A stretch of DNA of 43,385 bases from a virus (lineage: Duplodnaviria; Heunggongvirae; Uroviricota; Caudoviricetes), in the IMG/VR virus record IMGVR_UViG_2778261121_000005, positions 1-43,385 of that record. One strand, 5' to 3'. Both the position numbers and the translations under genes were made by a program. The notes beneath the pieces were generated by a model. That model ran no database searches. It worked only from the letters and a program-made list of their open reading frames with translations, and was not told the origin of the DNA. Shown here in pieces: positions 14,854 to 38,646 of the stretch. Every line of letters starts with the position of its first letter. Position 1 is the stretch's first letter.

Positions 14854-14862
14854 TTATTCACC

Positions 14863-16788: not shown

Positions 16789-16806
16789 GCTTAATGCTCC
16801 GATAGG

Positions 16807-17700: not shown

Positions 17701-17790
17701 TTGTTACCCCTGTTTACTCGATGTTCAGCCCATCGGAAGGCAATAGGGTGCCAGGCCTCATAAAGACAGCCATTGCACGTTATGGGTTAA

Positions 17791-19989: not shown

Positions 19990-19990
19990 A

Positions 19991-21406
19991 TCAACCTACA
20001 CCACAAGGAATTGAGTAACTGGAATAGTCGGGTTGCGCAGCCGACTCCGGGCAATGCATACACATCATCAGCGCATCAGCCAGGTTAGGAGATGGGATAC
20101 CGAGCTTCTGCTTCATTTCGACCTTAGTCATAAGCTCCAGCTTCCCGTTGTTATTGAATTTGCGCTGAATCTGCGTAAGTTCTGCAAACAGCTTCTCCAG
20201 CATCTTCTCGCCTATCGCTTCTTTGTCGAAACTCAGCATGTCGTCGGGGTCTGCATACTCACCGTGAACAACCGCCCGATATGTCAGATACAGTCTGTCA
20301 GCCAGCGCGTAATAGAATTGCGCTCGCTTATTGCGGAATACATCGCCAATAGTGCGAACGTTGTCACCCTGTACGACTTCATCAGCCCATGCTCCGGCCT
20401 GATACGGCGCATCTTCATCGAATGGCGATTCGCTACCCTTGAACATCGTGGCGGTGATTTTCTTGCCGGAGAACGCTTCCGTTGTCTGTCTGCGTAGCCC
20501 CGCACCGACGCCATCACCATCCCACAGGTAATGGTCAGCGCCGTCTTCAATCGCCAGCGAAGTAGCCCAGTCAGCACCCTCGTTGATGTCCATCAGCAGG
20601 CCTTCGGCAATGCGCTTAACAACCGAACCGTGACGCGATGCATAACCTTTAGCATCTGGCCCTGTATCTGATGGGTCATGCGCAGAGACAACAGCGCCTT
20701 TCGCTTTCCATCCGAGTTTCTTGTGCGCATCGGTTGCGGCTTCAAGCCATTCACGTTTGATGATTGCCATATCACTTGCGCTTACCGGCTCACCCAGCCA
20801 GATGTGACGATACAGTGTCGGATTTCTGCGTTTGCACTCTTCCATCTCCAGACGGAGAACTTCAGGAAAGTGCGGGTTGTCGGTGTAGTTCACCGTCAGC
20901 AGACAAATATCATCGGGAGGATTTACGACGAATCGCTGATAGGTATCGTCGAGGATGTTCTTCGGGTTAAAGCTCACCCATATTTCAGAGAACGGCTTAC
21001 GGATGGTTGGTATCAGGATATCCCATGATTCCTTTGTTACCGCTTCCGCTTCTTCCACCCAGCAGATATCAATGCCTTCGAGCGATTTAATCTTCGTCGG
21101 GTTGTTTTTGATGCCGTAGAACATGAACTCAGCATTCGTTCCGAGATGACGAATCATGGAACGCTGAATTTCAAACTCAGCCGAATACCCTTCACGCTCG
21201 ATAGTGTCTTCAAGCAACCGGATTACCGAATCGCTGATACTGTTTTGCAGTTCACGAGCGCAGAGAATACGCACAGGCTGCCGACGCGCCGCTTCAACAA
21301 GCAGCCTCGCAATTGCCCATGATTTGCCGCTACCTCGACCGCCTTTGGCGACTTTGTAGCGATGCGCCTCAATGAACGGTTCAAAGATAGGATTAATCGA
21401 GGTCAT
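19991..21406 (-). CDS. terminase large subunit
   Basis: 471 aa; Walker A GGRGSGKS near the N-terminus; overlaps the small-subunit gene. Confidence 0.9.
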   Translation of the reverse strand: MTSINPIFEPFIEAHRYKVAKGGRGSGKSWAIARLLVEAARRQPVRILCARELQNSISDSVIRLLEDTIEREGYSAEFEIQRSMIRHLGTNAEFMFYGIKNNPTKIKSLEGIDICWVEEAEAVTKESWDILIPTIRKPFSEIWVSFNPKNILDDTYQRFVVNPPDDICLLTVNYTDNPHFPEVLRLEMEECKRRNPTLYRHIWLGEPVSASDMAIIKREWLEAATDAHKKLGWKAKGAVVSAHDPSDTGPDAKGYASRHGSVVKRIAEGLLMDINEGADWATSLAIEDGADHYLWDGDGVGAGLRRQTTEAFSGKKITATMFKGSESPFDEDAPYQAGAWADEVVQGDNVRTIGDVFRNKRAQFYYALADRLYLTYRAVVHGEYADPDDMLSFDKEAIGEKMLEKLFAELTQIQRKFNNNGKLELMTKVEMKQKLGIPSPNLADALMMCMHCPESAAQPDYSSYSIPCGVG

Positions 21407-21843
21407 TTTCCGAACAGAGTGCTCATCGGTGATGTTTCAATCTGGATTGCGCCTCCGTCTTTGCCTGTTAGCTCGTGATCAACCTTGTCGCGCCATTTAT
21501 CCTTCTGTCTGTTCTTAAGCCAGAAGATGGCAGCTGTTGTATCAGGCGGGTAATACTTCTCAAGCGGAGTTTCGACAATTCTGTTTTCAATAACACGAAT
21601 ATCGATGTCTGGAGCCACGAAGCCCATAGCGCGTTGATAAAGACGGTCACTAACTTCTGCATCAGCAACGGCCTTACCCTTTTTTATGGACTCCGAAAAC
21701 TCAGGATAATCAAGCTTCCACTTGTTAATAGTTGACTCACTGACTTCGAAGAAATCAGCAAGCTCTGCATCGGTGTAGCCCAGCAAGCACAGTTTGCGTG
21801 CCTGTTCGGCGTACGCCTCTTGATACTTTGTTGGGCGCGCCAT
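21403..21843 (-). CDS. terminase small subunit
   Basis: 146 aa; HTH-like GYTDAELADFFEVSESTINKW; translationally coupled to the large subunit. Confidence 0.8.
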   Translation of the reverse strand: MARPTKYQEAYAEQARKLCLLGYTDAELADFFEVSESTINKWKLDYPEFSESIKKGKAVADAEVSDRLYQRAMGFVAPDIDIRVIENRIVETPLEKYYPPDTTAAIFWLKNRQKDKWRDKVDHELTGKDGGAIQIETSPMSTLFGK

Positions 21844-21845
21844 GT

Positions 21846-22088
21846 TTATGCTCCGGTAGTGAACAGGTCTAACGCTTCCTTCGATTTACGCACCGCTTCG
21901 ATTGTGCGGGTCGTGATATCTGAATTAGCGCCGCCTGACTGGAAGTGAATTTTGAATAGCTCAAGCTTCAGTTCGTCAGTGCCGATGAATTGAAATGCTT
22001 CTTCTGCGGCTGCGTTCTGGTTCATGACCAGCTTGTAAATCTCTAACTGGAATTTCTGTTCTTCAGTCATGGGAATAATCTCTGCCAT
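21846..22088 (-). CDS. hypothetical protein (80 aa) upstream of terminase small subunit
   Basis: ORF ending 3 nt before the terS start; no recognisable motif. Confidence 0.45.
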   Translation of the reverse strand: MAEIIPMTEEQKFQLEIYKLVMNQNAAAEEAFQFIGTDELKLELFKIHFQSGGANSDITTRTIEAVRKSKEALDLFTTGA

Positions 22089-22191
22089 TGTTGGCTCCGT
22101 TTATCCGTTAAAAGGGATATCAGTTAAGTTATCCCGTGTAGGGTATAAGCCATTATCAAAGCCACTCTGTAGGGAATGGCTTTTGTAATAA

Positions 22192-22572
22192 CTACTGTTC
22201 GCTTAACTTCTGCTTCAGCAAGTAACCTTCGAGCATCCAGATTTTGTTTACAGCATTCTGCCGGGCAATCTTCCGACCAATTTCTGCATCAAAATTTTCC
22301 GGACTTGCACAGGCACTCTCGCCGGTGACGGTGAAGCCATTCTTCAGCACCAGTACGCAGAAAGTGAGCAACTTCAATGGTGATAAATCACGATCGCCTT
22401 CTTCTGGTTTTTCCCTGCCACAATATTCGTTGCTGGAAATGGCACCATTTCGTCCATCATAAGCAGTAAAGTAATGCTCGCTTTTAATCACGTCTTCGAT
22501 GTGCTGCGGGGTGATTCGCGGAGCGGTTTTGCCTTTCTCAACGATTTCTTTTTCGATTTGCTGGTCGTTCAT
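22192..22572 (-). CDS. hypothetical protein, possibly N4 gp49 / Sf6 gp66 family
   Basis: 126 aa; family assignment from memory of similar proteins between lysis and terminase genes in P22-like phages. Confidence 0.45.
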   Translation of the reverse strand: MNDQQIEKEIVEKGKTAPRITPQHIEDVIKSEHYFTAYDGRNGAISSNEYCGREKPEEGDRDLSPLKLLTFCVLVLKNGFTVTGESACASPENFDAEIGRKIARQNAVNKIWMLEGYLLKQKLSEQ

Positions 22573-22805
22573 AATTATGACCCTGTAGAGTGGTTGCTTG
22601 ATTAGGATGTCTTTCCATCAGTCCGCCACCACAAAGAATCTTTTTTGCCATAAGGCTGGAGGTTCATCTTTCAGTGGCTGCCGGTGTTATTTCCCCACTT
22701 ACTGGCTTGGGTTGCTTCGTGGTACTGCCGTAACTGGTTGCCAAGAATAAATTCCGGTTTCATTATCAAGCCCACCCGTTGATGGGCTTTGTAATGACTA
22801 CATGG

Positions 22806-23285
22806 TTAAATGATTTGCCAGTCTTCAGCCATCAGGTCGCCAATGGATGGAACCCATGTAGCAAGGCGGTTCTGTGAGTTTTTCAATACAAGCGTGTCAT
22901 TGAAAGTTGGCTCGCCAACATATTCGCCAAAGCCATAACCCAACGCAGACGCTAATTTTTCCCCTTTCATGAGATAAACAAACTGGTCTTTCCCATTCCA
23001 TCCTGCCCGCTGCAAACTTTTGCCCTGTTTTAACGCTTCCATGGCAAGGCCGAAACTTAGTCCTGATACCGGACGATAAGCCCTTTCGAATACTTCTTTT
23101 GGACTCCAGCTAACGTAGCCATCAAAGCGATCGGTGTTAGGTTTTCCGCCATCCAGATATTCAACCAGATAGCCTTCGTCCTCGCCGTTTTCTCCGGCAG
23201 GAAGCTGCCAGCCACGAAAATCGTTATATGCCTGTCTCGTCATCGGAAAGGCGTTAATCAGTTTTACGCCAATATGCTGGGTCAT
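22806..23285 (-). CDS. hypothetical protein with DUF2829-like C-terminal half
   Basis: 159 aa; C-terminal segment (AMEALKQGKSLQRAGWNGKDQFVYLM) resembles DUF2829 proteins common in phages. Confidence 0.45.
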   Translation of the reverse strand: MTQHIGVKLINAFPMTRQAYNDFRGWQLPAGENGEDEGYLVEYLDGGKPNTDRFDGYVSWSPKEVFERAYRPVSGLSFGLAMEALKQGKSLQRAGWNGKDQFVYLMKGEKLASALGYGFGEYVGEPTFNDTLVLKNSQNRLATWVPSIGDLMAEDWQII

Positions 23286-23506
23286 AAAATCACCTATGGA
23301 GTTGGGAATAAAAAACCCCGCGAATGCGAGGCTAAATCCTGGTATTTGTAATGACTGGCTCTTATCTCAACGCAGCCCCTTACCGCGCGCCAGATGCTCA
23401 ATATCAAGCATCAGCAATGAGATGTTTAATCTGGATTCACTCCAGAAGTGATCACCACCCTGTCTACAGAGCCAGATGTGAAGGATGATGAGTAAAATTA
23501 TCGCTA

Positions 23507-23944
23507 TCATCGAAGGCATTGCGTCCTGATGTATTCCTGCAGGTAGTTAACCTGCGCGGTTATCCTGTCGATTCCACTTCTGAGACGGTAATAATTGAGT
23601 TCAGCATCTGCTGTAAGTCTTGGGCTTTCTCCATCGCCCATGCTGCTGGCTCCGGTCGTTGACTTTGCACAGGTGGCGGCGACTTGCAGGCGCTTACGCC
23701 CAGCAGAAACATCAGCACGGAGACTTTCGATAGTCGCGTTAGCATCAGCAAGTTCCTTTGTATATCTTGCGTCGAGTTCTGCTACATCACGTTGACGCTT
23801 CTGCATGTCAGCGATTGTGGATGTGGCTTTATCGCGCTGTTCTTTGTAGGCGATGGCGTTATCACGGTAATGATTAACCGCCCATGACAGGCAGACGATG
23901 ATGCAGATAACCAGAGCGGAGATAATCGCGGTTACTCTGCTCAT
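23507..23944 (-). CDS. Rz: i-spanin Rz
   Basis: 145 aa; N-terminal TM segment then coiled coil; immediately after the endolysin; contains the embedded Rz1 ORF. Confidence 0.85.
23560..23751 (-). CDS. Rz1: o-spanin Rz1 lipoprotein, embedded in the +1 frame of Rz
   Basis: 63 aa; lipobox LLGVSAC followed by proline-rich [14 protein letters not shown]; C-terminus resembles lambda Rz1. Confidence 0.8.
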
Positions 23945-24417
23945 ACCTCAATCTCTCTGACCGTTCCACCTGCTTCTTTGAATTTTGCAATCAGGCTGTC
24001 TGCCTTATGCTCGAACTGACAATAACCAGCACCCGGCAGTGAAGCCCAGATATTGCTGCAACGGTCGATTGCCTGACGGATATCGCCGCGATCAATCATC
24101 GGTAAAGCGCCACGCTCTTTAATCTGTTGCAGTGCCACAGCGTCCTGGCTTTTCGGAGAGAAGTCTTTCAGGCCAAGCTGCTTACGATAGGCATCCCACC
24201 AACGGGAAAGAAGCTGGTAACGTCCGGCTGCTGTTGATTTGAGTTTGGGGTTTAGCGTGACAAGTTTGCGAGGGTGATCGGAGTAATCAGTGAATAGCTC
24301 TCCGCCAACAATGACGTCATAACCATGATTTCTGGTTTTCTGCCGTCCGTTATCAGTTCCCTCTGACCACGCCAGCATATCGAGGAACGCCTTACGTTGA
24401 TTATTGATTTCCACCAT
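23941..24417 (-). CDS. R: endolysin (lambda R lytic transglycosylase)
   Basis: 158 aa, near-identical to lambda R as recalled ([52 protein letters not shown]...). Confidence 0.95.
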
Positions 24418-24724
24418 CTTCTACTCCGGCTTTTTTAGCAGCGAAGCGTTTGATAAGCGAACCAATCGAGTCAGTACCGATGTAGCCGATGAACACGCTC
24501 GTTATATAAGCGAGATTGCTACTTAGTCCGGCGAAGTCGAGAAGGTCACGAATGAACCAGGCGATAATGGCGCACATCGTTGCGTCGATTACTGTTTTTG
24601 TAAACGCACCGCCATTATATCTGCCGCGAAGGTACGCCATTGCAAACGCAAGGATTGCCCCGATGCCTTGTTCCTTTGCCGCGAGAATGGCGGCTAACAG
24701 GTCATGTTTTTCTGGCATCTTCAT
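24401..24724 (-). CDS. S: holin/antiholin (lambda S)
   Basis: 107 aa beginning [35 protein letters not shown] with dual-start Met1-Lys2-Met3, as in lambda S107/S105. Confidence 0.95.
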
Positions 24725-25122
24725 GTCTTACCCCCAATAAGGGGATTTGCTCTATTTAATTAGGAATAAGGTCGATTACTGATAGAACAAATCCAGGCTA
24801 CCGTGTTTAGTAATCAGATTTGTTCGTGACCGATATGCACGGGCAAAACGGCAGGAGGTTGTTAGCGCAACCTCATGCCACCCGCTTTCACGAAGGTCAT
24901 GTGTAGAAGGCCGCAGCGTAACTATCACTGATGAATTCAGGATAGCCAGTGGCTACGGCTCAGTTTGGGTTGTGCTGTTACTGGGCGGCGATGACGCCTG
25001 TACGCATTTGGTGATCCGGTTCTGCTTCCGGTATTCGCTTAATTCAGCACAACGGAAAGAGCACTGGCTAACCAGGCTCGCCGACTCTTCACGATTATCG
25101 ACTCAATGCTCTTACCTGTTGT

Positions 25123-25170
25123 GCAAACAAAAAAGCCACCGTTGCAACTTAAGAGTCACTAACGGCAGCT
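25123..25170 (-). terminator. late-leader terminator (tR'-like) directly downstream of candidate pR'
   Basis: On the minus strand an imperfect hairpin (GCCGTTAG...CAACGGTGGC) followed by TTTTTTGTTTG. Confidence 0.55.
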
Positions 25171-25174
25171 TATG

Positions 25175-25212
25175 CGAATAGTGTTGCTCATTTGCTCAAT
25201 GATGTCAACACG
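25175..25212 (-). promoter_or_regulatory. candidate late promoter pR' / Q-utilisation region
   Basis: On the minus strand TTGACA (25209..25204) just after the Q stop; -10 element is not clear-cut (AACACT/CACTAT). Confidence 0.4.
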
Positions 25213-25214
25213 TT

Positions 25215-25703
25215 CTATGCTACATGTTTAATTTTCTCTACACGTTTCCGGTTTTTAAACGCACTATCCAGAACCGGGTAAATCATAAACAACGAAGCAT
25301 TGAGGATTTCGTCAACTTCCCGGCGACAGGTTGCGAGCGATGGTTTTTGAATACGCCCGCCGCCCCGGCATAACATCTTGCGAGGTCTTGCGACACGATG
25401 ATAGTAAGATGCAATGGCATGCTTGGAAGATCCATGAGCGTAGTAGCTGAGGAGGATGCCAAAGGCTTTCTTGTCAATGTACATGACGGAATCGACGACC
25501 TGAGAAATCAACATTCCATCATCATCATTACACATTGGCCTTGTCATAACTCTTCCCGGCTCTACGCTCTCCATGAACTTCGCTATTACGCTGCTCATGC
25601 GCTTTTCCAGACGACCTGAATAAACCCATGCGCCCCACAGTTCAAGCCAGCCATTCAGCCACTCATGCTGTTCTTTGGTGAGGTTTAGTTCTCTTATGCC
25701 CAC
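25215..25703 (-). CDS. Q: late antiterminator Q (non-lambda Q family)
   Basis: 162 aa at the Q position between the nin-region phosphatase and the late promoter; [11 protein letters not shown] resembles a motif I recall from other prophage Q proteins; not similar to lambda Q. Confidence 0.7.
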
Positions 25704-26365
25704 GCGCCTTCTCCCTGTACCTGAATCAATGTGAGGTTTCCGCAGAACACTGCGCCGGTATCGATATACATTTGGTTGGCAAATTTAAGTGGTTTCACTG
25801 CTGGCGTATGACCAAAGATAAACGTGTCCGCGCCTTTGATTTCTTTTACGATCCCGTCTTGTGAGTTGCTGATTCGTTCGCGGTTCCAGATTACCTGCTG
25901 ATGATCAACTGGCTTTCCAAACTCGTATTCGTCACAAGGATAATCGGCGTGGCAGATGACATATTTTTTATCTTTGCTCACCAGTTCGATGATTAACGGA
26001 AGTTCATCTGCTTTATGGGCAAGAGCTTTAGCCAGAATTTCTTTGTCGTAATCGAGATTAAAGAACCAACTACCGCCATTAAGCAGCCAGTGATTGACGT
26101 TTCCGCGCTCTGATAAGCCATCAATCATCATTTGCTCATGGTTTCCACGTACAGCTCTGAACCAGGGGAATGTGATTAATTCCAGGCATTCAACGTTCTC
26201 TGTACCGCGATCGACCAAATCGCCAACCGAGATAAGCAGGTCTTTTTTGGTGTCGAATCCTATCGTCTCCAGTTTTTTCATCAGGTTCGTGTAGCATCCG
26301 TGCAGATCGCCAACTACCCAAATATTTCGGTATTTGCTGCCATCAATTCTTTCGTAATAGCGCAT
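25694..26365 (-). CDS. Ser/Thr protein phosphatase (lambda PPase / NinI-like)
   Basis: Near-identical to lambda phosphatase as recalled ([29 protein letters not shown]...GNHE); metallophosphatase GDLHG/GDLVDRG/GNHE motifs; start chosen at MRYYE. Confidence 0.9.
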
Positions 26366-26549
26366 CTCTTTCACTCCATCCGCGATGAACCATGAGAACG
26401 TCGTTGACTATGGCGTGCATTTTCCCGTCTTTATCATCAACGTATTTTCTGACCGTACCGCGACTACATTTCAGTCTGCGTGCCACTTCTGTCTGGTTTC
26501 CGTATGCTTCAACGAGCATGTCTGGAATGGTTTTTACTGAGAACGTCAT
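26343..26549 (-). CDS. ninH: NinH
   Basis: 68 aa, matches lambda NinH as recalled; HTH-like. Confidence 0.85.
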
Positions 26550-27157
26550 GCGGCCTCACTTCTGCTATTTCGCAGGTCTTTGAGTTTCTGTTGGTACTCT
26601 GCCTTGATCGCCTTGCACTCTTCGACAGTCCAGCGATGGCGGTTATGGTTTGATTCGATTTCGTCTACTGCTTCCTGCCCGATTCGGTTAATCAGTTCGA
26701 CGCGATACGGAACGAGATTTCCGCTTTTATGCTGGTTGCACACCACGCATTGCTTGTGAATATTGCGTTCATCAAATCGGAGTTGAGGTGCCGCAGCAGT
26801 TGTCCGGTAATGTCCAGCATCCCACTGAGCAGACGTGAGCGTTCCGCACGAGATACATGGTAAGTCGCGGTCTCTTTCTCTGATGAAGGCGTTTACGGCT
26901 TGTTGGGCTTGTTTAATCCAGTAACTGCGGGGCTTTAAGGCGAGTTTTCGAATCTTAAGTTTATCTTTCTGTTTCTGCTCCTCTCGTCGTCGTTTCTTCT
27001 CTGCTGCCTTTTCCGCTTTTTCGCGTTCTTTGCTTCGTCGTTCGAGTGCTATCTTGGTTCCACACTCTGGAGAGCACCACCACTGATTGGCGAATGCAGG
27101 GTGAAACCATTCCCGACATTCATCGTTTTTACATCGTCTTCGCGCTGGTTTAGCCAT
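26546..27157 (-). CDS. ninG: NinG (Rap recombination endonuclease)
   Basis: 203 aa; cysteine-rich N-terminus ([12 protein letters not shown]...WCSPEC) and HNH-like core; lambda NinG-like. Confidence 0.85.
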
Positions 27158-27320
27158 CGTCTTCTTCCTCGTGCATCGAGCTATTCGGATCGCTCATCAG
27201 TTCTGCGCAGCAGTGCTCACACACGTGAACTTCCAGCACATGCAGCTTCTGACCGCAGTTAGCGCACGTTAAAGCTCGCTCGACACTTCCTTGTTCGTAA
27301 CTTCGATTTTGGTCAATCAC
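27150..27320 (-). CDS. ninF: NinF
   Basis: 56 aa from GTG ([56 protein letters not shown]), matches lambda NinF; not in the ORF track (no ATG start, under 60 aa). Confidence 0.75.
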
Positions 27321-27499
27321 CTTGTTTTCCTCGCACGTTCTCTAAGCCACCGGATATCCCACAGGTGAGCTGTGTAATTGAAGGTTTTTACGTCAGATTC
27401 TTTTGGGATTGGCTTGCGTTTATTTCTGGAGCGTTTCGTTGGAAGGTATTTGCAGTTTTCGCAGATGATGTCGGTGATACTTCGTCGCTGTCGTCTCAT
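27317..27499 (-). CDS. ninE: NinE
   Basis: 60 aa [60 protein letters not shown], matches lambda NinE; track ORF extends upstream without support. Confidence 0.8.
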
Positions 27500-28023
27500 G
27501 CCGCCCTCCTGACACCCCGCCCGATCGCCATCAATGCCGCTTTGGATACGGTAGTAAACATCCGTCGAGGACTGATGAACGGTCGCCAAATCAGCAGCAT
27601 GGAGCCTTTGCTGTTTCCCTTCTTCTCCAGCCCTGTCGATGGTTCGATAAAATTAATCCGTCCATCAGTGATGATGCGAACTTCGTCGACACTCTCCAGA
27701 GCCTTGCTGAACCATCCGACTGACATATCCTCTGGCACAAGCATAACTACCGTCTGTCGCTGTTGTATGCACTGCTCAGCGGCTTTTTCCACCCACGGCC
27801 TGATATTGCTGTACGGTGGGTTATTCCAGATTGCACCGTGGCTTATCCACTCAGAATTGAGTGCGTCGTCGGCCTCAGTTAGCCAGTGAGCGCACAGAGC
27901 ATTTTTGTCGCTCGCTGCCGAATCCAGCCAGAATCCAAACTCAATATCCAGTGCATCAAAAAGCCAAAGCGGCGTTTGCCAGCAGTCCTTGTCGTGTGCT
28001 GCCGTATTTGATTTGATAGTCAT
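27496..28023 (-). CDS. phage DNA N6-adenine methyltransferase (Dam-like, orphan)
   Basis: 175 aa from ATG with SD GGGGAGA; catalytic NPPY motif (IWNNPPYS); no adjacent restriction endonuclease gene. Confidence 0.8.
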
Positions 28024-28460
28024 GCAGCCCGATCTCCCCATCGCGCTTTCCATTCGAGAGCTAGTCGCGCTTCGTCTGACCACTTAACGCCACGCTCTGT
28101 ACCGAATGCCTGTATAAGCTCTAATAGCTCCGCAAATTCGCTTACACGCATCCTGCTGGTTGACTGGCCTATTACCACAAAGCCATTCCCGGCAAGGTTA
28201 GGAACAACGTCCTGCTGCTTTAATGCTGCGGTAAACACACACTTCCAGCTTTCTGCATCCAGCCAGCGACCATGCCATTCAACCTGACGCGAAACGTCAC
28301 CAAGGCAAGCCCAAAGCTTCCGATTTTGGTCTAAGCTGCGGTTGCGCTCCTGAATGGTTACTACGATTGGTTTGGTTGGGTCTGGAAGAATTTGCTGTAC
28401 CGCGTGAATAGCGTTTTGCTGATGTGCTGGAGATCGAATTTCAAAGGTTAGTTTTTTCAT
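28020..28460 (-). CDS. ninB: NinB (Orf-family recombination mediator)
   Basis: 146 aa, same length and nin-region position as lambda NinB. Confidence 0.8.
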   Translation of the reverse strand: MKKLTFEIRSPAHQQNAIHAVQQILPDPTKPIVVTIQERNRSLDQNRKLWACLGDVSRQVEWHGRWLDAESWKCVFTAALKQQDVVPNLAGNGFVVIGQSTSRMRVSEFAELLELIQAFGTERGVKWSDEARLALEWKARWGDRAA

Positions 28461-28477
28461 GACTTCCCTCTACCCCA

Positions 28478-28512
28478 AATAAAAAGGCCTGCGATTACCA
28501 GCAGGCCTGTTA
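28478..28512 (-). terminator. rho-independent terminator between helicase and ninB (tR2-like)
   Basis: Perfect 8-bp stem AGGCCTGC/GCAGGCCT with 8-nt loop, followed on the minus strand by TTTTTATTT. Confidence 0.7.
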
Positions 28513-28533
28513 CAAGCTCAGTGATGTAGATGG

Positions 28534-29910
28534 TCATACGTCAGCCCCTTGTGCATATCGTCTGCCACGTGCAGCAGGTGTATTTGATGTTGTGCAAATC
28601 TGTCTGGCTTCATCCTGGTCACATGCAACAAAGTGTCCGTTGCAGAACCGCTGGTAAACCGTACCAAGCGAGCCAAAACGGTTTTTCGTTACGATGATTT
28701 CAGCAAATGGCGCGGCGCTACTGTTCTCGTCATATACCGCTTCCCGATAGAGCATGATGATTGAGTCTGCGTCCTGTTCAATGCTTCCTGAATCACGCAA
28801 ATCTGCGTTTGTCGGGCGTTTGTTTGGTCGCTTCTCAACATCGCGCGAAAGCTGACTCAGGGAGATAACGGGCGTTTTCAGGTCTTTCGCCATCGCCTTC
28901 AGGCTTCCGGAGATGTGAGCAATTGCGAGGTCGTTGCGGTCTGCTTTCGGCTTCTCAATCAGGCCAAGATAATCCACCATGATGAGTGAGAGGTTTGGAT
29001 TTTCCTGTTTGTGCCGTTCTGCGATTGAGCGTATTTCTTCGACCGATAACCGCGAGGCATCGACTACCCATACATCCAAATCTGCAAGCTGACTCATGCC
29101 GTTAGCAACGCGCGCCCAGCCTTCGTCATCCATCGCTGCAGGATTTCGCAGCACACTAACCGACATCCTCCCGGCGTTGGCAATGCTTCGCTCTGCAATC
29201 TGCAATGCGCTCATTTCCATTGAGAAAATCAATACCCCGCGCCGGACGTCAGAACCAGGAATAACGCGGCTTGCAACGCCTTCGGCAATCTTCAGCGCCA
29301 GTTCGGTTTTCCCCATACCAGGACGAGCAGCGATTATCACCAGGTCTTCCGCGTTCATCCCTCCGGTGATGGCATCAAGTTCTTCGATTCCGGTCTTCAG
29401 GGTATCGGACTCTTCTCCGTTCCTCAGACGCCTGTCAAGCGTGTCAGTGTAGTCAGTAATGATTTCCCCTAACCGTACAGGTTTAACCTCGTCACGGGGC
29501 TTTCTGATGGCTGAAAGACGTTTTACAAGCTCATCCATCGCCTGACTCGATGCGTCGATGGTTCCGCTCTGAATTGGTTCACGCATTTCATCCATGATTT
29601 CCAGCACCAGACGGCGGTGATAGTTATCCGCGACCATTCCGGCATATCCCTTCAGGTTTGCGGCACTCGGGCAGTTTTTGCTGGTCATCAGGATTGACGT
29701 GAAATGCTCCTCTCCGCACGCCTCGGCAACCATCAGCGCATCGATTAGGTTTCTGTTTCTCGCCTGCTTGCGGATAACCTCGAAGGCTTTCCGGTAGAGC
29801 GGAATTGAAAACGCTTCCGGCTCCAGCGTTGCCAGAACGTCGCTGGCGGTTGGTGTTAATCCACCAATCAGCAGGCCACCGATAACGCTCGCTTCGATAT
29901 CCTGTCTCAT
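28534..29910 (-). CDS. replicative DNA helicase (DnaB family; P22 gp12-like)
   Basis: 458 aa; Walker A ARPGMGKT; DnaB-like N-terminal domain; downstream of the replication initiator. Confidence 0.9.
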
Positions 29911-30728
29911 GCAATCCCCCTGTCTGCAAACTTCCCTTCCCGTACTCCCGTTAACGAATCTTCCCTCAGCAGGTAATCAAAATCAGCTGTCCAGCCCGTG
30001 TCGTTGTCTCCGAAGTAAAACGGCTTGGCCTGATGCACAAACGCCCTGACATACGCTCTGAAACCGTCCACGTTTGGCGTTTTCAGTTGCGGGATGATTT
30101 TCTTCAGGCGGCGTTTGCGTTTCTCGTTGACCGCAACAGCGTGTGGCAGTCTGTCACCGACTTCGGTGTTGTAGGCGTTCAGGAAGGATTCGTAGTCGAT
30201 TCGTTCTGCCTTGCGACGTTCAGGTTTAACCTGCCCATCGCCACCCCCGTTAGGGGGTAAGGGGGTATTTGTATTTATTGTCTTTTGTATATTGTCTTTT
30301 GTGTTTAGCTGACTTGGCTTATACCCATTAGCCGACTTGGCTAATGTTTTATTAGCTGTTTTAGCTAATGTTAAGCTGTCCTGGCTAATCCACTGAGAAA
30401 CCACCTTGTTCACTCCGATTTTCACGCCATCAGCAATGAGGAATTTACGCTCGATAAGCTGGCGCTTGGCAGCGCAAACATGAGTGTGATGAATACCTGT
30501 CATGGCTGCTATCTGCGTGTTTGTGAGTCGATCCATCGGCTTATTGAATCCGTATGTCTTGCGCATGATAGCGAGCATCACCTTCAACTGCCGGACGGTT
30601 AAATCAGCCATCAGCAGACTGTCGGTAATCTCGTTAGCAACGCGCATGAAACCATCTTCGGTATCTGCCACGCGATGCTCCACGACCTCAAGTTGAGGCC
30701 TGTAATCAGCTAACTTAACGACGCCCAT
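29907..30728 (-). CDS. replication initiation protein (lambda O / P22 gp18-like) containing the origin
   Basis: 273 aa; N-terminal O-like DNA-binding region; iteron-bearing linker encoded at 30240..30380. Confidence 0.8.
30276..30372. repeat. candidate replication origin iterons inside the initiator gene
   Basis: Tandem ATTGTCTTTTGT x2 (30278..30303), TTAGCTGACTTGGCT / TTAGCCGACTTGGCT (30305..30319, 30328..30342), repeated TAGCTAATGTT motifs; adjacent G-rich CCCCCGTTAGGGGGTAAGGGGG. Confidence 0.65.
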
Positions 30729-30876
30729 GTTTCACTCCTGCTTTGGCTAGTCTGTAAACACCAACAAGGCGCTCTGCGAACGCCCTGTTATTTGCTGCGG
30801 CTACCACTAATCCCTCAGGTGAATCAGGGTGTCGAATCTCTTCTTTTTCCTGGTATTTCTTACGACGTTTTGTCAT
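30715..30876 (-). CDS. hypothetical small basic protein (53 aa) between cII-like and initiator genes
   Basis: ATG with SD AGGAG at 6-nt spacing; stop overlaps the initiator start; not in ORF track (under 60 aa). Confidence 0.4.
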   Translation of the reverse strand: MTKRRKKYQEKEEIRHPDSPEGLVVAAANNRAFAERLVGVYRLAKAGVKHGRR

Positions 30877-30908
30877 AATTACTCCTGTGGATTGATCCAG
30901 TAATTCCC

Positions 30909-31205
30909 TCAGAATTGCATATCAATTTGCTTAAAATCCTCGGCGGCCACCGGGGATTTTTTCTTTGTGATTTCATCAAGCGCATACTTAAAAGCCCTGC
31001 TAATCGGACTGATGTCTGATGCCATTCCGAAAGCACACAAGACCGAAGCAATAAATCTCCAGTCCGTTCTGCTTATCTTCGATTCATGACAGCCAATCAT
31101 CTTTGCCAGACCGCGCTGGGTAAGCGTTGACAGGTTGATAAGTAAATCTGTTTCTGCGCGATCAACGTCGCGCTGTGATAGTTTGCTGTAACTTGTTTGT
31201 TCCAT
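30909..31205 (-). CDS. cII: CII-like transcriptional activator
   Basis: 98 aa immediately downstream of cro and nutR; HTH segment ...GLAKMIGCHESKISRTDWRF... analogous to lambda CII. Confidence 0.75.
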   Translation of the reverse strand: MEQTSYSKLSQRDVDRAETDLLINLSTLTQRGLAKMIGCHESKISRTDWRFIASVLCAFGMASDISPISRAFKYALDEITKKKSPVAAEDFKQIDMQF

Positions 31206-31269
31206 TTCTTATGATTTCCATAGGTAAATAATCACTAATACTCATCTTTCGATGAGCGATTAATTAGTT

Positions 31270-31304
31270 ACCGCGTTGTCGGCGGTGCAGATTGATAAAG
31301 AGCG
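31270..31304 (-). promoter_or_regulatory. nutR (boxA + boxB)
   Basis: On the minus strand boxA CGCTCTTTA, then boxB hairpin ACCGCCGACAACGCGGT, between cro and cII. Confidence 0.75.
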
Positions 31305-31314
31305 GATCCGCTTA

Positions 31315-31530
31315 TTAAGCGGCTTTGTGTTCCGGCGGGAACACGTCATCAAGACTGACTTTTGCGCCTAACTTGTTTAGGCACGCAACAAGAGCACGGC
31401 ATGTTTTAAGGTCTGGGAAGCGACGACCAGATTCCCAATGTCCGATAGCTCCCTGTGTGCATCCAACCGCCTTAGCAAGTGTTGTTTGAGAGATATTCAG
31501 TGACTCTCGATATTTTCGTAGGTTGCTCAT
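31315..31530 (-). CDS. cro: Cro-like repressor (HTH)
   Basis: 71 aa from internal ATG with SD GGAGGG; HTH QTTLAKAVGCTQGAIGHWESG; divergent from the repressor gene. Confidence 0.8.
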   Translation of the reverse strand: MSNLRKYRESLNISQTTLAKAVGCTQGAIGHWESGRRFPDLKTCRALVACLNKLGAKVSLDDVFPPEHKAA

Positions 31531-31554
31531 ATGCCCTCCATAGTAACCATGAAA

Positions 31555-31631
31555 CAATAATACGATATGTACTTTTGGAATGCAAACAAAAAATACATCT
31601 TGTGCATGGATGGTTTTAGTACATAGCGTAA
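31555..31631. promoter_or_regulatory. right operator/promoter region (OR, PR, PRM) with GTAC-type operator sites
   Basis: Inverted near-identical 12-mers TACGATATGTAC (31561..31572) and GTACATAGCGTA (31619..31630); minus-strand PR candidate TTTGCA-N18-TATTAT overlapping the first site. Confidence 0.6.
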
Positions 31632-31641
31632 TAATAAGGAT

Positions 31642-32301
31642 ATGAAAATGAAATGGTATGAACTGGCTAGATCCAGAATGAAAGAGCTCGGCATAACTCA
31701 AGAGAAGTTAGCTGAAGAGCTTGGTATGACGCAGGGTGGAATTGGTCACTGGTTGCGCGGATCTCGTCATCCATCTCTTGACGAGATTGGTGTGGTGTTT
31801 AAATACCTTGGTATTGATAACGTCTCATTCAACCACGACGGTACATTTTCACCTGCTGGCGAATACTCATCTGCCCCCGTTAAAAAACAATATGAGTACC
31901 CTGTTTTTTCTCATGTTCAGGCCGGGATGTTCTCGCCTGAGCTTAGAACCTTTACCAAAGGTGATGCGGAGAGATGGGTCAGCACAACCAAAAAAGCCAG
32001 TGATTGTGCGTTTTGGCTTGAAGTTGAAGGTAATTCCATGACCGCACCAACAGGATCCAAGCCAAGCTTTCCTGACGGAATGTTAATTCTCGTTGACCCT
32101 GAGCAGGCTGTTGAGCCAGGAGATTTCTGCATAGCCAGACTTGGCGGTGACGAGTTTACCTTCAAGAAACTGATCAGGGATAGCGGTCAGGTGTTCCTAC
32201 AACCACTAAACCCGCAATATCCAATGATCCCATGCAATGATAGCTGTTCCGTAGTAGGGAAAGTTATCGCCAGCCAGTGGCCTGAAGAGACATTTAGTTA
32301 A
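31642..32301 (+). CDS. cI: prophage repressor (CI / P22 C2-like, LexA-type S24 peptidase domain)
   Basis: 219 aa; N-terminal HTH ([25 protein letters not shown]); C-terminal domain resembles P22 C2 ([13 protein letters not shown]...LVDPE...FKKL...PLNPQYPMI). Confidence 0.9.
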
Positions 32302-32332
32302 CAGCCTCACCACTCTAAAACACACAACAATA

Positions 32333-32361
32333 ACCCGACCTTAGCGTCGGGTTTTCTTTTT
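32333..32361 (+). terminator. rho-independent terminator after the repressor gene
   Basis: ACCCGAC-cttagc-GTCGGGT followed by TTTCTTTTT. Confidence 0.7.
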
Positions 32362-32426
32362 CCAAAATATAAATCAATAAAATACAAAGTGTTATAAAAA
32401 ACCAACCACATTTAGAACATTTTGTA

Positions 32427-32455
32427 TTGACTCAATAAAGTACACATCGTACTAT
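32427..32455 (+). promoter_or_regulatory. PL promoter with overlapping OL operator
   Basis: TTGACT-N17-TACTAT; operator-like AGTACACATCGTACT (32439..32453) shares the GTACA.A.CGTA pattern with the OR sites. Confidence 0.65.
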
Positions 32456-32501
32456 TTAGCCATCAGCAGGAAGCTGGAAGCCAAACGGAACAGATTGGCA
32501 G

Positions 32502-32535
32502 GCTCTTTAACTTCGATGGGGCGCTGACAAAGCGC
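32502..32535 (+). promoter_or_regulatory. nutL (boxA + boxB)
   Basis: boxA-like GCTCTTTAA then boxB hairpin GCGCTGACAAAGCGC (matches P22 boxB as recalled). Confidence 0.75.
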
Positions 32536-32654
32536 AAACAGATACCAAACGAGATGGGTTTGGCGGTGATGTGAATTGCAGCTGCAACGACAGCAACCAG
32601 AAGATCAGCACCTGGCGCATCACCACCAAAGCCATTTCACATGAGGAAAATATC

Positions 32655-32963
32655 ATGACGGTAATCGTGTACGGAAAATCAACATTTGCAGGAAATGCCA
32701 AAACTCGCCGTCATGAGCGGCGCAGAAAGCTGGCTATCGAGCGTGATGCTATATGCAACATCATCGATTCGATCTTCGGCACAGACAGTGAGGAACCTGT
32801 TCAGGAAGCCCCGAGAAAGCGTTTAAGCATTTCTGAAAAAGCAATATCACTCGGCATCATTAGCAAATCAAATACAGATGCGAATAGCGGAAGCGTTTGT
32901 TTGCCTGAAGTCGCACTGTATGCTGCTGGTTACAGAAGGCAAAAACTAATTACAGCGAGGTAA
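32655..32963 (+). CDS. N-type antiterminator (P22 gp24-like)
   Basis: 102 aa MTVIVYGKSTFAGNAKTRRHERRRKLAIERDAICNIIDSIFG...; arginine-rich motif; SD GAGGAAAA. Confidence 0.85.
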   Translation: MTVIVYGKSTFAGNAKTRRHERRRKLAIERDAICNIIDSIFGTDSEEPVQEAPRKRLSISEKAISLGIISKSNTDANSGSVCLPEVALYAAGYRRQKLITAR

Positions 32964-32965
32964 AA

Positions 32966-33244
32966 ATGAAGCCTAGCATAACAATCAAGCCAGCGAGAGA
33001 TAATAGCAGGAACCGCCGCAGAGAGGCCAGGAAGGCAGAAAGAGCAGAGAAGGAAAACAAGAGCCGGGAGGAGAGAAAGGCAGAGATTTTGGAAAAAGGA
33101 GGATTGGCTGCCGTGAGGGGTGAAAAAGCAGCTGAATTAGCAGTAGCTCACGAAAAGACAGAGATTGACAATAATTCTGGTGGAGATGCAATGTTTAAAG
33201 TTGTCAATCACGCCCATCAACGAAACCCCAAAAAGAAATGGTAA
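32966..33244 (+). CDS. hypothetical Lys/Arg/Glu-rich protein (92 aa)
   Basis: ORF starting 3 nt after the antiterminator stop; highly charged; followed by a terminator. Confidence 0.45.
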   Translation: MKPSITIKPARDNSRNRRREARKAERAEKENKSREERKAEILEKGGLAAVRGEKAAELAVAHEKTEIDNNSGGDAMFKVVNHAHQRNPKKKW

Positions 33245-33246
33245 TC

Positions 33247-33270
33247 AACCCGTCCAAGACGGGTTTTTTA
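33247..33270 (+). terminator. rho-independent terminator in the early-left operon
   Basis: CCCGTC-caa-GACGGG followed by TTTTTT. Confidence 0.7.
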
Positions 33271-33371
33271 TTGCAAGCAAACCACTTATTTGAGGTGAGA
33301 TATGGAAGAAGAATTTGAAGAGTTCGAAGAGCATCCGCAGGATGTGATGGAACAATACCAGGACTATCCGT

Positions 33372-33572
33372 ATGACTACGACTATTGATAAAAATCAATG
33401 GTGTGGACAATTCAAGCGATGCAATGGATGCAAGCTGCAATCGGAATGCATGGTTAAGCCTGAAGAAATGTTTCCTGTAATGGAAGATGGGAAATATGTC
33501 GATAAATGGGCAATACGAACGACGGCAATGATTGCCAGAGAACTTGGTAAACAGAATAACAAGGCTGCCTGA
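33372..33572 (+). CDS. ral: restriction alleviation protein Ral
   Basis: 66 aa MTTTIDKNQWCGQFKRCNGCKLQSECMVKPEEMFPVMEDGKYVDKWAIRTTAMIARELGKQNNKAA, matches lambda Ral as recalled. Confidence 0.85.
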   Translation: MTTTIDKNQWCGQFKRCNGCKLQSECMVKPEEMFPVMEDGKYVDKWAIRTTAMIARELGKQNNKAA

Positions 33573-33599
33573 TGGTGGCCTTTATTTTTAAGGTGCTAT

Positions 33600-33842
33600 A
33601 TGAAAATTAAAACTATGGGCGCAAGCCCATTAAGCGGTCGTATTTTTCAAGGAACATTAAACACTGAAAAAGGAATGTGGGTAGGAAAGAAAGAAGATGT
33701 CACCGAACAGGCAGTTAAGGCAGTAGCTGAACACCTGATGATAAAAGACCAGAAATACGCATACGAAACGAAGGATGGCAAATGGCTGATAATAAGCCAT
33801 CAACTGGTTGATAAATTACCAGAAGATTTTATTGCTGATTAA
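33600..33842 (+). CDS. hypothetical protein (80 aa)
   Basis: ORF between ral and cIII; no recognisable motif. Confidence 0.45.
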   Translation: MKIKTMGASPLSGRIFQGTLNTEKGMWVGKKEDVTEQAVKAVAEHLMIKDQKYAYETKDGKWLIISHQLVDKLPEDFIAD

Positions 33843-34060
33843 AATTTTTTTGGCATAAACAACAGAATAAACACTGCACTGTGTATTCATTCCAACGAGT
33901 GAATACACGGAGCAATGTTGCTCGTAACTAAACAGGAGCCGACTTGTTCTGATTATTGGAAATCTTCTTTGCCCTCCAGTGTGAGGGCTTTTTTATATGC
34001 ATACCAATAACGCTTCACTCGAGGCGTTTTCGTTATGCAATCAAATATAAGGAGTTACCC

Positions 34061-34195
34061 ATGATGCACTTTCAGCTCGCGGGTAGCGGCGTCATGTCCG
34101 CTTTCTACCCGCACGAATCTGAATTATCACGCCGAGTTAAACAATTAATCAGAGCAGCAAAGAAACAACTGGAGGCGTTATGCGCAATGAAATAG
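34061..34195 (+). CDS. cIII: CIII-like protein (FtsH inhibitor)
   Basis: 44 aa from ATG with SD AAGGAG; ...LAGSGVMSAFYPHESELSRRVKQLIRAAKK parallels the lambda CIII amphipathic region. Confidence 0.7.
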   Translation: MMHFQLAGSGVMSAFYPHESELSRRVKQLIRAAKKQLEALCAMK

Positions 34196-34332
34196 CCATT
34201 AATCACCAGATGCTTCGTGCTGCACAGAACAAAGCAGTAATAGCCCGATTTATTGGTGATTCAAAAATGTGGCTTGAAGCAAATAAAGCGATGAAATCAG
34301 CTATCAACCTTCCGTGGTATCGCAGGAAATGA
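34180..34332 (+). CDS. kil: Kil-like host division inhibitor
   Basis: 50 aa; ARFIGDSKMWLEANKAMKSAI resembles lambda Kil; overlaps the cIII end; not in ORF track (under 60 aa). Confidence 0.6.
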   Translation: MRNEIAINHQMLRAAQNKAVIARFIGDSKMWLEANKAMKSAINLPWYRRK

Positions 34333-34413
34333 GTTTTACAGATAACTGGTCAGACGAAGAATTCATTCGTCAGATGAAAGAAATGCTCAATCAGCACAAA
34401 GAACAGGAGAAAG

Positions 34414-34725
34414 ATGATGATTCTGACTCTGAATGATAAGCGTGAAATATCGCAAATAATCGCAAGTTTTACTGATGAAGATTACGAACGAATCAACAGT
34501 GAAGTTGATCGCCTCTGCAAACGTTGCGACCCAATAAGCGAAATGCTTCGCTCATATAAACCAGATGAACACACTAAGGACGCTATCGACTGGCTGGAAG
34601 ATGATGACTGTAACTATCAGGAAAAAGCCGCTGAATGGTTCTGGGATGCAATAACCGAAAGAGTTAAGGCTGAATATGCCTTCGCAATATTCAAACGCAG
34701 ACACATTTTTGGAGAAGCTGCATGA
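34414..34725 (+). CDS. hypothetical acidic protein (103 aa) upstream of recT
   Basis: Stop overlaps the recT start (ATGA); acidic, Trp-rich. Confidence 0.5.
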   Translation: MMILTLNDKREISQIIASFTDEDYERINSEVDRLCKRCDPISEMLRSYKPDEHTKDAIDWLEDDDCNYQEKAAEWFWDAITERVKAEYAFAIFKRRHIFGEAA

Positions 34726-35633
34726 GCAATATCGTTGAATTCGTTAAACAGCAGGAGCAGTTATTCTGCGGAGCATTGACTGAACAGACGGTGACATGGG
34801 CTAAGGAAAGCCAGTTTGCAATTCAGTATTTCCAGAAAAACGATTACCTGGCTAAAACAGCACTGGCAAATCCAACCAGCGCACAGAACGCCATCATCAA
34901 TGTTGCGGCGATCGGCATCACCTTAAACCCGGCCAGCAAACTGGCTTATCTGGTTCCTCGCGACGGCATGGTGTGCCTTGATATCAGCTATATGGGATTG
35001 CTCCATATTGCAATGGAGTCTGGTGTTATCTCATGGGGTCAGGCAAAACTTGTTCATGCTAACGATACCTATGAGTCAAACGGGCTTGATAAAGCACCAA
35101 CCCATAAATACAACGCCTTCGGTGACCGTGGTGATATCGTTGGCGTTTACTGCACAGTTAAGACGCCAGCAGGTGATTATCTAACGGAAGAGATGAGTCT
35201 GGCTGAAATTGAGGCTGTAAGGAAAACAAGCAAGGCAGCATTCAGCGATAAAGGACCATGGGTAAATCACTGGAATGAGATGGCGCGAAAGACGGTCGTA
35301 AAGCGTGCAAGCAAGTATTGGCCTAAGGCATCACGCCTTGATAGTGCTATTCACGTACTAAACGAAGAAGAAGGCGTGTGGACCGAACCAGTTATGCCGC
35401 ACAAATCAGAGGAAGATATCCGCGAAGATGAACGGAAACGCCAGCAGGAAATAATGGATAAAGCACAACTTCTTTGCGATGAAATGGCTCAGGCAGAAAA
35501 CATGGATGATTTGAAGCGATATTTTGCAGAAGCATATCGCCTGACATCTGGAATGAAATTGCAGCAGAACGTACAAGCCATTTACATAGAATGCAAAGCG
35601 AAACTGGAGGTTGCCAGTGAGCAAACTGTATGA
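34722..35633 (+). CDS. recT: RecT-family single-strand annealing recombinase
   Basis: 303 aa; GPWVNHWNEMARKTVVKRASKYWP matches the conserved RecT segment. Confidence 0.85.
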   Translation: MSNIVEFVKQQEQLFCGALTEQTVTWAKESQFAIQYFQKNDYLAKTALANPTSAQNAIINVAAIGITLNPASKLAYLVPRDGMVCLDISYMGLLHIAMESGVISWGQAKLVHANDTYESNGLDKAPTHKYNAFGDRGDIVGVYCTVKTPAGDYLTEEMSLAEIEAVRKTSKAAFSDKGPWVNHWNEMARKTVVKRASKYWPKASRLDSAIHVLNEEEGVWTEPVMPHKSEEDIREDERKRQQEIMDKAQLLCDEMAQAENMDDLKRYFAEAYRLTSGMKLQQNVQAIYIECKAKLEVASEQTV

Positions 35634-36099
35634 AATTGCCAATGAATACGCAAAATTGATGGATTCAGATTTAGAACCAGAGATGATTGCTGACACAATA
35701 GAAGGCATGGAAGGAGAATTTACCGATAAAATAGAGCAACTTCTTGCCATTATTAAAAATGAATCTGGTTATGCTGAACGCCTCAAGGAAGAGGCAAAGT
35801 CACTGAATGAGCGAGCCGCAGTAATTCAAAATAAGATTGGCAGCATTATGGCGTATATAGCGTCATCGCTTGAAATGGTTGGCAAGAAAAAGATTAGAGC
35901 AGGTATTCACCAGGTAACAATCCGCAAACCGTCAGAAACTGTAGAAATCATCGACTCAAGCGCCCTTCCTCCTGAATACGTTGAGTTTGAAACGACAATT
36001 AAAGCCGACAAACTGGCAATCAAACACCAACTAAAAGCAGGAATAAATATCCCCGGCGCTCAACTCAAAGTTGGGAAACCTTCACTTCTTATCAAATAA
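35611..36099 (+). CDS. hypothetical protein, possibly Siphovirus Gp157-like
   Basis: 162 aa, acidic N-terminal half; family assignment from memory; start overlaps the recT end. Confidence 0.45.
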   Translation: MPVSKLYEIANEYAKLMDSDLEPEMIADTIEGMEGEFTDKIEQLLAIIKNESGYAERLKEEAKSLNERAAVIQNKIGSIMAYIASSLEMVGKKKIRAGIHQVTIRKPSETVEIIDSSALPPEYVEFETTIKADKLAIKHQLKAGINIPGAQLKVGKPSLLIK

Positions 36100-36110
36100 C
36101 GGTATCGCCT

Positions 36111-36425
36111 ATGAAAAAGACTCCATGGGAGAAATGGGAAGTCGATTTCTTGCGCGAAGTGGCGGCGACAATGCCAGTTGAAGTTATCGCTGAAAAACTG
36201 GAAAGGACTGAAAAAGCAGTAATGGCGAAAGCAACAAGGATTGGCGCTGACATTGTTAGCCGACTTCGTGGAAGACGCTGGACAAGAGCCGAAGTATCAC
36301 TTTTCGGTAAGTTCTCCGCAGAAGAAATAGCAATTGCAACCTGCCGCTCAATTTATTCAGTAAGAGCTATGCGATACAAGCTAAAAAAACTCGATGAAGA
36401 AAGAGCAGGCATACGAATAAATTAA
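36111..36425 (+). CDS. hypothetical protein with two internal HTH-like repeats
   Basis: 104 aa; repeated W-x2-E-V-x2-L ... IA ... R pattern ([10 protein letters not shown]...[12 protein letters not shown] and [10 protein letters not shown]...[12 protein letters not shown]). Confidence 0.45.
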
Positions 36426-36441
36426 CAAAGAGGAATTTACA

Positions 36442-36606
36442 ATGAGAGGACTTGCATACAATCCCGGCATTCTTCCGGCAGAAATGATTATTCGCCAACG
36501 CGTAAAGCCAATGCCATCGAGAGAGGAATTGCTTAAAAGAAAGAGTTTCGGTTCTGTTAATGACAACAAATATCTGAATGCGATGTGGCGGAGTGGGAAG
36601 AAATGA
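36442..36606 (+). CDS. hypothetical small protein (54 aa)
   Basis: SD AAAGAGGAA upstream; stop overlaps the next start (ATGA); not in ORF track. Confidence 0.4.
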
Positions 36607-37274
36607 AACAAATGTCACTAATTGAGATGGATGGTTTTCTGAAAGGTAAATGCATCCCAAGTGATTTAAAGGTTAACGAAACAAACGCTGAATATCTGGT
36701 GCGTAAATTTGCTGAAGCGGAGGCCAAGATTTCGGCTCTGTCCGAAGACCACCAGAGAGCGATTGAGTCAATTAAGCAGGCTGATGCGGCTGTTAAGTTG
36801 GCACACGAGAAGTTTTCGGCTCTGGCTGCTGAGAATGCTCGCTACTCAATGTCAGCAGGGCAAGCAGACCAAAGAATGTCGGAGTCGTGCGCAGTTCGGG
36901 AGGCACTTGGGTTTAATCGGTCAGCTGACGACGTGTCACCATCTGACCTGGTAGATAAAATCAAATCTATCATAGCTGAATGTGATGCTATCCGTAGCGC
37001 ACACCCTCAACCACTTGGCCCTGTAATGGATGCTGCAATCGATGCATTTAATGCAGAGGAGATGCCTGAAACCGGAATGCTTAACGCGTACTTCATCCTG
37101 CGTGACAGCATCACGGTGCAAACTCCGTCCACTGACGCCTTCCTGGCTGAAGTGCGGGCGCGTGGTGTGGAGATGTTTGCTGCCAGCCTGAAGGTTGTTG
37201 GTGGTCAAGAGCATCCATATTCATCGTTGGCTCACGAGTTCGCAACCCAGCTTCGCAAAGGAGGCAACCAGTGA
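36603..37274 (+). CDS. hypothetical protein (223 aa)
   Basis: ATG overlapping the upstream stop; coiled-coil-like N-terminal half. Confidence 0.5.
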
Positions 37275-37714: not shown

Positions 37715-37715
37715 T

Positions 37716-38645: not shown

Positions 38646-38646
38646 T

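Follow-up and report, generated by a model that had tools for sequence, protein, structure and literature searches.

A predicted orphan N6-adenine methyltransferase gene between ninB and ninE of a P22-like prophage

The window analyzed here, the whole 43,385-nucleotide stretch of the IMG/VR record IMGVR_UViG_2778261121_000005, is a P22-like prophage whose early region is lambdoid; it is integrated beside ybhC. Its nin region carries, between ninB and ninE, a gene for a small N6-adenine DNA methyltransferase, referred to below as dam, which is the subject of this report. The minus-strand coding sequence (27496..28023; start codon ATG at 28023..28021, stop codon TGA at 27498..27496) encodes a protein of 175 amino acids. 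The frame can be read further upstream to a GTG at 28083, giving the 195-amino-acid open reading frame (ORF) of the ORF listing; this longer form overlaps ninB by 64 nucleotides, and its extra residues fall outside every family profile. As the family profiles span residues 2-169 of the 175-residue form, the homologues are 175 amino acids long and start at the same methionine, and the ATG overlaps the ninB stop codon in an ATGA, the start was assigned to the ATG at 28023. The coordinates given in the initial annotation were exact for the coding sequence, the strand being absent there.

The product of dam is a full-length member of the PF05869/TIGR01712 family, with scores above the curated cutoffs of both profiles. 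It matches Pfam PF05869 (DNA N-6-adenine-methyltransferase, Dam) with an E-value of 5.6e-64 and 215.3 bits (cutoff 28.1), residues 4-169 being aligned with profile positions 1-167 of 169, and the NCBIfam equivalog TIGR01712 (phage N-6-adenine-methyltransferase) with 261.7 bits (cutoff 97.05) over residues 2-168. PHROG 111 (DNA methyltransferase) also matches, and the top PADLOC matches are models of orphan methyltransferases (oMTase). In the Pfam scan PF05869 was the only family found, with no match to the MT-A70 or canonical Dam families.

Catalytic motif IV, NPPY (residues 68-71; codons at 27811..27822, minus strand), was recovered by the motif screen, in the alignment and in the structural model. 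It is the sole [DNS]PP[YFWH] motif among window ORFs of at least 70 amino acids, a set in which the screen revealed no second methyltransferase; an MT-A70-like motif was found by the same screen nowhere in the window. N68, P69, P70 and Y71 are invariant across 43 homologues, and all the columns invariant in these homologues (42/42) are retained in the dam product, including T17, P18, L33, D34, A36, N68-S72, D99, D113, E114, R116, K139, G140, and W146-P148; W15 and Q16 are at least 90% conserved among the homologues. The N-terminal W-x-T-P and L-D-x-A motifs of the family are present as well and form a putative S-adenosylmethionine (AdoMet)-binding region, which would bind the cofactor. The initial annotation had described an NPPY-motif N6-adenine methyltransferase and had named loss of catalytic residues on alignment as an outcome that would speak against it; the full-length profile matches and the position of NPPY agree with the former, and no such loss is seen.

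A sequence search of the PDB returned nothing significant for a member of PF05869, the family having no solved structure there. In an AlphaFold2 model of the dam product, built with 43 homologues (predicted local distance difference test, pLDDT, 87.9; predicted template modeling score, pTM, 0.86), NPPY comes after the strand formed by residues 64-68, and every one of the best structural matches in the PDB is an N6-adenine methyltransferase: the RNA cap adenosine methyltransferase PCIF1/CAPAM (best match; score 10.4, Foldseek E-value 1.7e-4), M.TaqI (9.7), M.BseCI (9.3), MmeI (9.0), E. coli Dam (8.9), CamA (8.6), and T4 Dam (7.9). They align over 104-148 residues of the 175, with 8-17% identity, and are to be read as superfamily-level matches. 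The protein leaves no space for a separate target-recognition domain, and L-D-x-A and NPPY are only about 30 residues apart. As modeled, the protein is essentially a bare single-domain class I N6-adenine methyltransferase catalytic domain, without a separate target-recognition domain.

The gene upstream of dam, ninB (28020..28460, minus; PF05772, E 1.1e-54), encodes the Orf recombination mediator and is 95.4% identical to lambda ninB. The gene downstream is ninE (27317..27499, minus; PF05322, E 3.2e-43), followed by genes for NinF, NinG (Rap), NinH, a Ser/Thr phosphatase, and the Q antiterminator (25215..27320, minus; PF05810, PF05766, PF06322, PF00149, PF06530). The TGA of ninB overlaps the ATG of dam in an ATGA at 28023..28020, the TGA of dam overlaps the ATG of ninE in an ATGA at 27499..27496, and the AGGAGG Shine-Dalgarno sequence for ninE sits within the 3' end of dam. 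ATGA overlaps at both junctions are a classic signature of translational coupling and thus argue that the three genes are coupled. Directly upstream of ninB lies a strong tR2-like intrinsic terminator (28485..28508, minus), in which 6 pairs of the 8-bp stem are GC and a T run comes after the stem. It falls, as 28508..28485, within a block homologous to positions 40567-41084 of lambda, and the homologous stretch of phage Lahn3 carries the annotation "tR2, early terminator". With this terminator upstream of ninB, transcription of ninB, dam and ninE in the pR operon would depend on antitermination.

BLASTN comparison with lambda delimits the dam cassette. Window positions 28537..28020 correspond to lambda 40567-41084 at 95.4% identity, and the homology stops exactly at the ninB stop codon; it restarts seven bases into ninE, where window positions 27492..25701 correspond to lambda 42097-43888 at 97.3% identity. 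Both flanks, tR2/ninB on one side and ninE to the phosphatase gene on the other, are therefore 95-97% identical to those of the lambda nin region, whereas lambda has ninC (3'-phosphoadenosine-5'-phosphosulfate (PAPS)-reductase-like) and ninD where the window has dam. The dam cassette of 527 bp, which has no lambda counterpart, stands for the 1012 bp of lambda ninC and ninD. At the sequence level, this exchange of dam for ninC and ninD is a clean cassette swap at gene boundaries; the initial statement that dam replaces the lambda genes between ninB and ninE is literally correct.

Another cassette swap was observed further along the same operon. The end of the phosphatase gene (25701) closes the lambda homology, which restarts only at 25134..25000; the intervening Q gene (25215..25703, minus; 162 amino acids, PF06530) is an allele other than lambda Q. 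As to the junctions of dam, some database proteins (n=4) look like Dam-NinE fusions (PF05869 and PF05322, 233-235 amino acids) or Dam-NinB fusions (PF05869 and PF05772); these probably arose from frameshifts or miscalled genes where the ATGA overlaps lie and are unlikely to be true fusions.

No gene for a nuclease adjoins dam, its neighbors being ninB and ninE. No restriction-enzyme family was found by PHROGs among ten early-left ORFs of no known function, and no restriction-enzyme model by PADLOC among ten proteins (seven of these early-left ORFs plus Dam, NinB and NinE); a nuclease of an uncharacterized family would escape such scans, and the late-region ORFs were assigned from their DNA similarity to P22-like phages alone. 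Orthologues of dam at 66-78% identity occur in Providencia, Yersinia and Pectobacterium prophages in three different contexts, namely after a replication gene (Providencia), in the early-left arm near int (Yersinia), and between genes for DUF1367 and NinG (Pectobacterium), and neither a nuclease nor NinB is found beside them in any of the three. Within these scans the sequence data support the classification of the dam product as an orphan (solitary) methyltransferase, with no cognate endonuclease, in line with the absence of a partner endonuclease reported in the initial annotation.

Two candidate partners were considered and rejected. The ATGA coupling, together with the reported link of the Orf family to base flipping, had prompted the idea that NinB could serve as a partner or surrogate recognition module; it was abandoned in view of the orthologues at 66-78% identity, which lie in prophage contexts without NinB. 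The other candidate was an early-left ORF of 171 amino acids (38647..39162, plus), in which a D...ExK-like motif reminiscent of PD-(D/E)XK nucleases can be seen by eye ("DAMGF...LIEAKCS"). This ORF has no match in Pfam, NCBIfam, PADLOC or a sequence search of the PDB, and matches just PHROGs 9263 and 631, both of unknown function; as it belongs to the opposite operon and is 11 kb away from dam, it was not treated as a hidden cognate nuclease.

The dam product is identical to that of orf32 of phage VT2-Sakai (NP_050531.1) at 172 of 175 positions (98%). The three differences (A8P, I60V, and R169Q) are conservative, and all of them fall in variable columns. In VT2-Sakai, orf32 also sits between ninB and ninE, and it is the sole methyltransferase annotated in this 60.9-kb phage; the VT2 enzyme was reportedly cloned by Radlinska and Bujnicki in 2001. 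M.EcoVT2Dam has been described as an orphan methyltransferase targeting GATC (PMC6602927, citing Radlinska and Bujnicki, 2001, pmid 11720311), and VT-2 and HP1 are listed among phages with Dam-like genes, that of HP1 having been cloned (PMC7556043). Because orf32 is the only methyltransferase annotated in VT2-Sakai, we infer that it corresponds to M.EcoVT2Dam.

The gene is common. Phage records with a protein homologue of dam number 1897. By DNA, 425 phage records contain ninB-dam-ninE with 90-99% identity, among them 434, SfI, HK140, mEp043, Sf101, and many Shiga toxin (Stx) phages of the Stx1 and Stx2 types. At a DNA identity of at least 95%, dam was found in 1566 of 5426 complete E. coli genomes, in up to five copies per genome, uniformly annotated as "phage N-6-adenine-methyltransferase". 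In a large protein library the PF05869/TIGR01712 family comprises 8741 clusters at 50% identity. Both the gene and its occurrence were already known, and nothing in the present analysis is new in this respect; in this window dam matters little, being a routine and recognizable part of the lambdoid mosaic that standard pipelines name.

Taken together, the segment 27496..28023 very probably encodes an orphan N6-adenine methyltransferase of lambdoid phages, an allele of the VT2-Sakai enzyme, with the specificity, timing and benefit proposed below being drawn from its relatives and position. As the protein is 98% identical to the sole annotated methyltransferase of VT2-Sakai, its target, judged from sequence, would be the adenine of GATC. 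The gene would be transcribed from pR past tR2 under antitermination, with translation coupled to that of ninB and ninE. Its position behind the tR2-like terminator in the pR operon suggests expression in lytic growth rather than in the repressed prophage, and we infer that the Dam product is a delayed-early protein. The methyltransferase could then modify GATC adenines on phage DNA whose replication is too fast for the limited host Dam to keep up with, so that packaged genomes would be fully methylated. Lambda DNA from dam+ cells is only partially methylated at GATC. The likely pay-off may be protection against restriction enzymes that cut unmethylated GATC, as well as escape from the action of MutH and SeqA on unmethylated or hemimethylated DNA. 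The function proposed in the initial annotation, anti-restriction or gene regulation, is accordingly described here as plausible.

Several points weigh against this interpretation. The equation of orf32 with M.EcoVT2Dam is itself derived from orf32 being the sole annotated methyltransferase of VT2-Sakai. GATC is strongly underrepresented in the window: positions 1..42000 contain 75 sites, where base composition predicts 163 and a Markov model 212. The ratio of observed to expected sites is thus 0.35-0.46; the Markov value (0.35) is as low as that of CTAG (0.36) and below that of any other 4-bp palindrome, and such avoidance leaves fewer targets for a phage enzyme. That enterobacterial phages and prophages avoid GATC had been reported earlier (Henaut et al., 1996, as cited in PMC6602927). 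Moreover, in lysogens of Shiga toxin-producing E. coli (STEC) host Dam methylates approximately 99.9% of chromosomal GATC sites (PMC6602927, Table 4), and hence it is not obvious how another enzyme acting on GATC would be of benefit. Finally, specificities determined by over-expression of prophage "Dam-like" enzymes have misled before, as in the case of the MT-A70 enzyme (PMC10810198) compared with dam below.

Three other explanations were weighed. One holds that dam is an inactive remnant carried by the mosaicism of the nin region, a region dispensable in lambda, which counts in favor of this explanation, as does the fact that activity would duplicate that of host Dam. However, the ORF is full-length and keeps every invariant residue of the family, its start is well formed and coupled, its fold is predicted with confidence, and it is intact at a DNA identity of at least 95% in 1540 genomes; such conservation excludes inactivity for practical purposes, and we consider it barely conceivable. 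It is improbable, though somewhat less so, that the main role of dam lies in the lysogen, where it would control host or prophage expression or induction frequency epigenetically, and not in modifying phage DNA in lytic growth. A putative phage Dam methyltransferase, CM2, is expressed in cultures of Phi24B lysogens, and its authors suggested that it may supplement host Dam in keeping lysogeny (PMC3342100), host Dam being reported as essential to stable lysogeny of 933W (Murphy et al., 2008, as cited in PMC3342100). Yet CM2 need not be the nin-region dam, and lysogen cultures also contain spontaneously induced cells. In addition, dam lies downstream of the tR2-like terminator in the pR operon, which is shut off by the repressor in the lysogen, where nearly all GATC sites (approximately 99.9%; PMC6602927) are already methylated by host Dam.

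The remaining explanation is that the true substrate is not duplex GATC, the enzyme having relaxed or other specificity, acting on RNA or on the single-stranded intermediates of replication or recombination, or depending on a partner for recognition. The modeled protein, a bare catalytic domain without a recognition domain, would be compatible with this, as would its best structural match, which is to an enzyme acting on RNA caps (PCIF1), in a family for which the sequence search of the PDB yielded no solved structure; there is also a prophage precedent, an annotated GATC Dam that prefers 16S rRNA in the presence of PNB-2 (PMC10810198). However, the precedent enzyme is of another family (DPPW, MT-A70) and its gene is located near int and outside the nin region, while the neighbors of dam are not conserved among its orthologues, so that no obligatory partner is apparent. 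The 98% identity to the sole annotated methyltransferase of VT2-Sakai, whose Dam is reported as GATC-specific (PMC6602927), and the membership in the same family of the protein encoded by HP1, a phage whose Dam gene was cloned (PMC7556043), likewise speak for GATC, and a different substrate appears very unlikely. A GATC-directed methyltransferase of the lytic phase is thus preferred for dam.

Outside the dam module, the window carries ral, a restriction alleviation gene of the pL operon (33372..33572, plus), which matches PF11058 over its full length (E 1.6e-48); the co-occurrence of ral with dam, pointed out at the outset, therefore holds. For an Arg-rich ORF of 92 amino acids upstream of ral (32966..33244, plus), the match to PHROG 5632, "Nun-like transcription termination factor" (E 1.5e-29), is stronger than that to the N-like PHROG 271; this ORF presumably encodes the N-type antiterminator of the phage, an allele other than lambda N. 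Lar-like restriction-alleviation genes (PF14354) lie near dam in VT2-Sakai (2793..3035) and in two Providencia prophages (4448..4633 and 4258..4443), which suggests that genes with anti-restriction functions are often grouped in this segment of the early-right operons of lambdoid phages; in the window there is no room for a Lar-like gene between the helicase gene and ninB. In a closely related prophage, that of E. coli strain 998, the interval from the repressor region to cIII contains a gene (14942..15565) for an "Nmad5 family putative nucleotide modification protein".

Canonical Dam enzymes (E. coli Dam, T4 Dam, and DpnM; alpha class, MethyltransfD12) have no sequence-family relation to the dam product. 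They are approximately 260-280 amino acids long and have a dedicated DNA-recognition domain, whereas the dam product has 175 amino acids and no such domain, and in structural alignments the two share about 8-10% identity. The family match and the recognition domain between motifs I and IV that define the canonical alpha class are both missing from the dam product. Only its chemistry and its reported target make it "Dam-like", a case of convergence on GATC and not of membership.

The Stx-prophage enzyme M.EcoPA8orf6770P/M.EcoGV belongs to the MT-A70 family, carries a DPPW motif, and is encoded near int together with a co-transcribed winged-helix partner, PNB-2; annotated as a GATC Dam, M.EcoPA8orf6770P prefers 16S rRNA once bound to PNB-2 (PMC10810198). 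Enzymes of this type share with dam a prophage location, the lack of a restriction partner and, in STEC, annotation as a GATC Dam. They differ from it in motif, family and locus, the window protein having NPPY, belonging to PF05869 and being encoded in the nin region; DPPW, the MT-A70 family match and the winged-helix partner are all absent from dam. Identity of the dam product with the Stx-prophage rRNA methyltransferase (Gong et al., 2023) was thus rejected, as that enzyme represents another family and another locus. The 16S rRNA methyltransferase nevertheless serves as a reminder that "Dam homologue" annotations in prophages should be treated with caution.

Closer counterparts are found among phages of the same family. 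Over its first 12 kb, the HP1 record has a single annotated DNA methyltransferase, orf13, which is taken to be the cloned HP1 Dam. Its product (173 amino acids) resembles that of dam in belonging to PF05869, with 38% identity and the motifs DKD-W-TP, LD-x-A and NPPYSN; however, HP1 is a P2-like phage in which the gene ends the early operon, and the sequences have diverged by at least 60%. The small phage Dam family also spans Drexlerviridae, Webervirus, and Vibrio and Lactococcus phages. Nearest of all are VT2-Sakai and the 933W-type Stx phages, 434, SfI, HK140 and mEp043, which carry the same dam gene as the window, although the window element differs from the Stx phages in being a P22-like prophage at ybhC.
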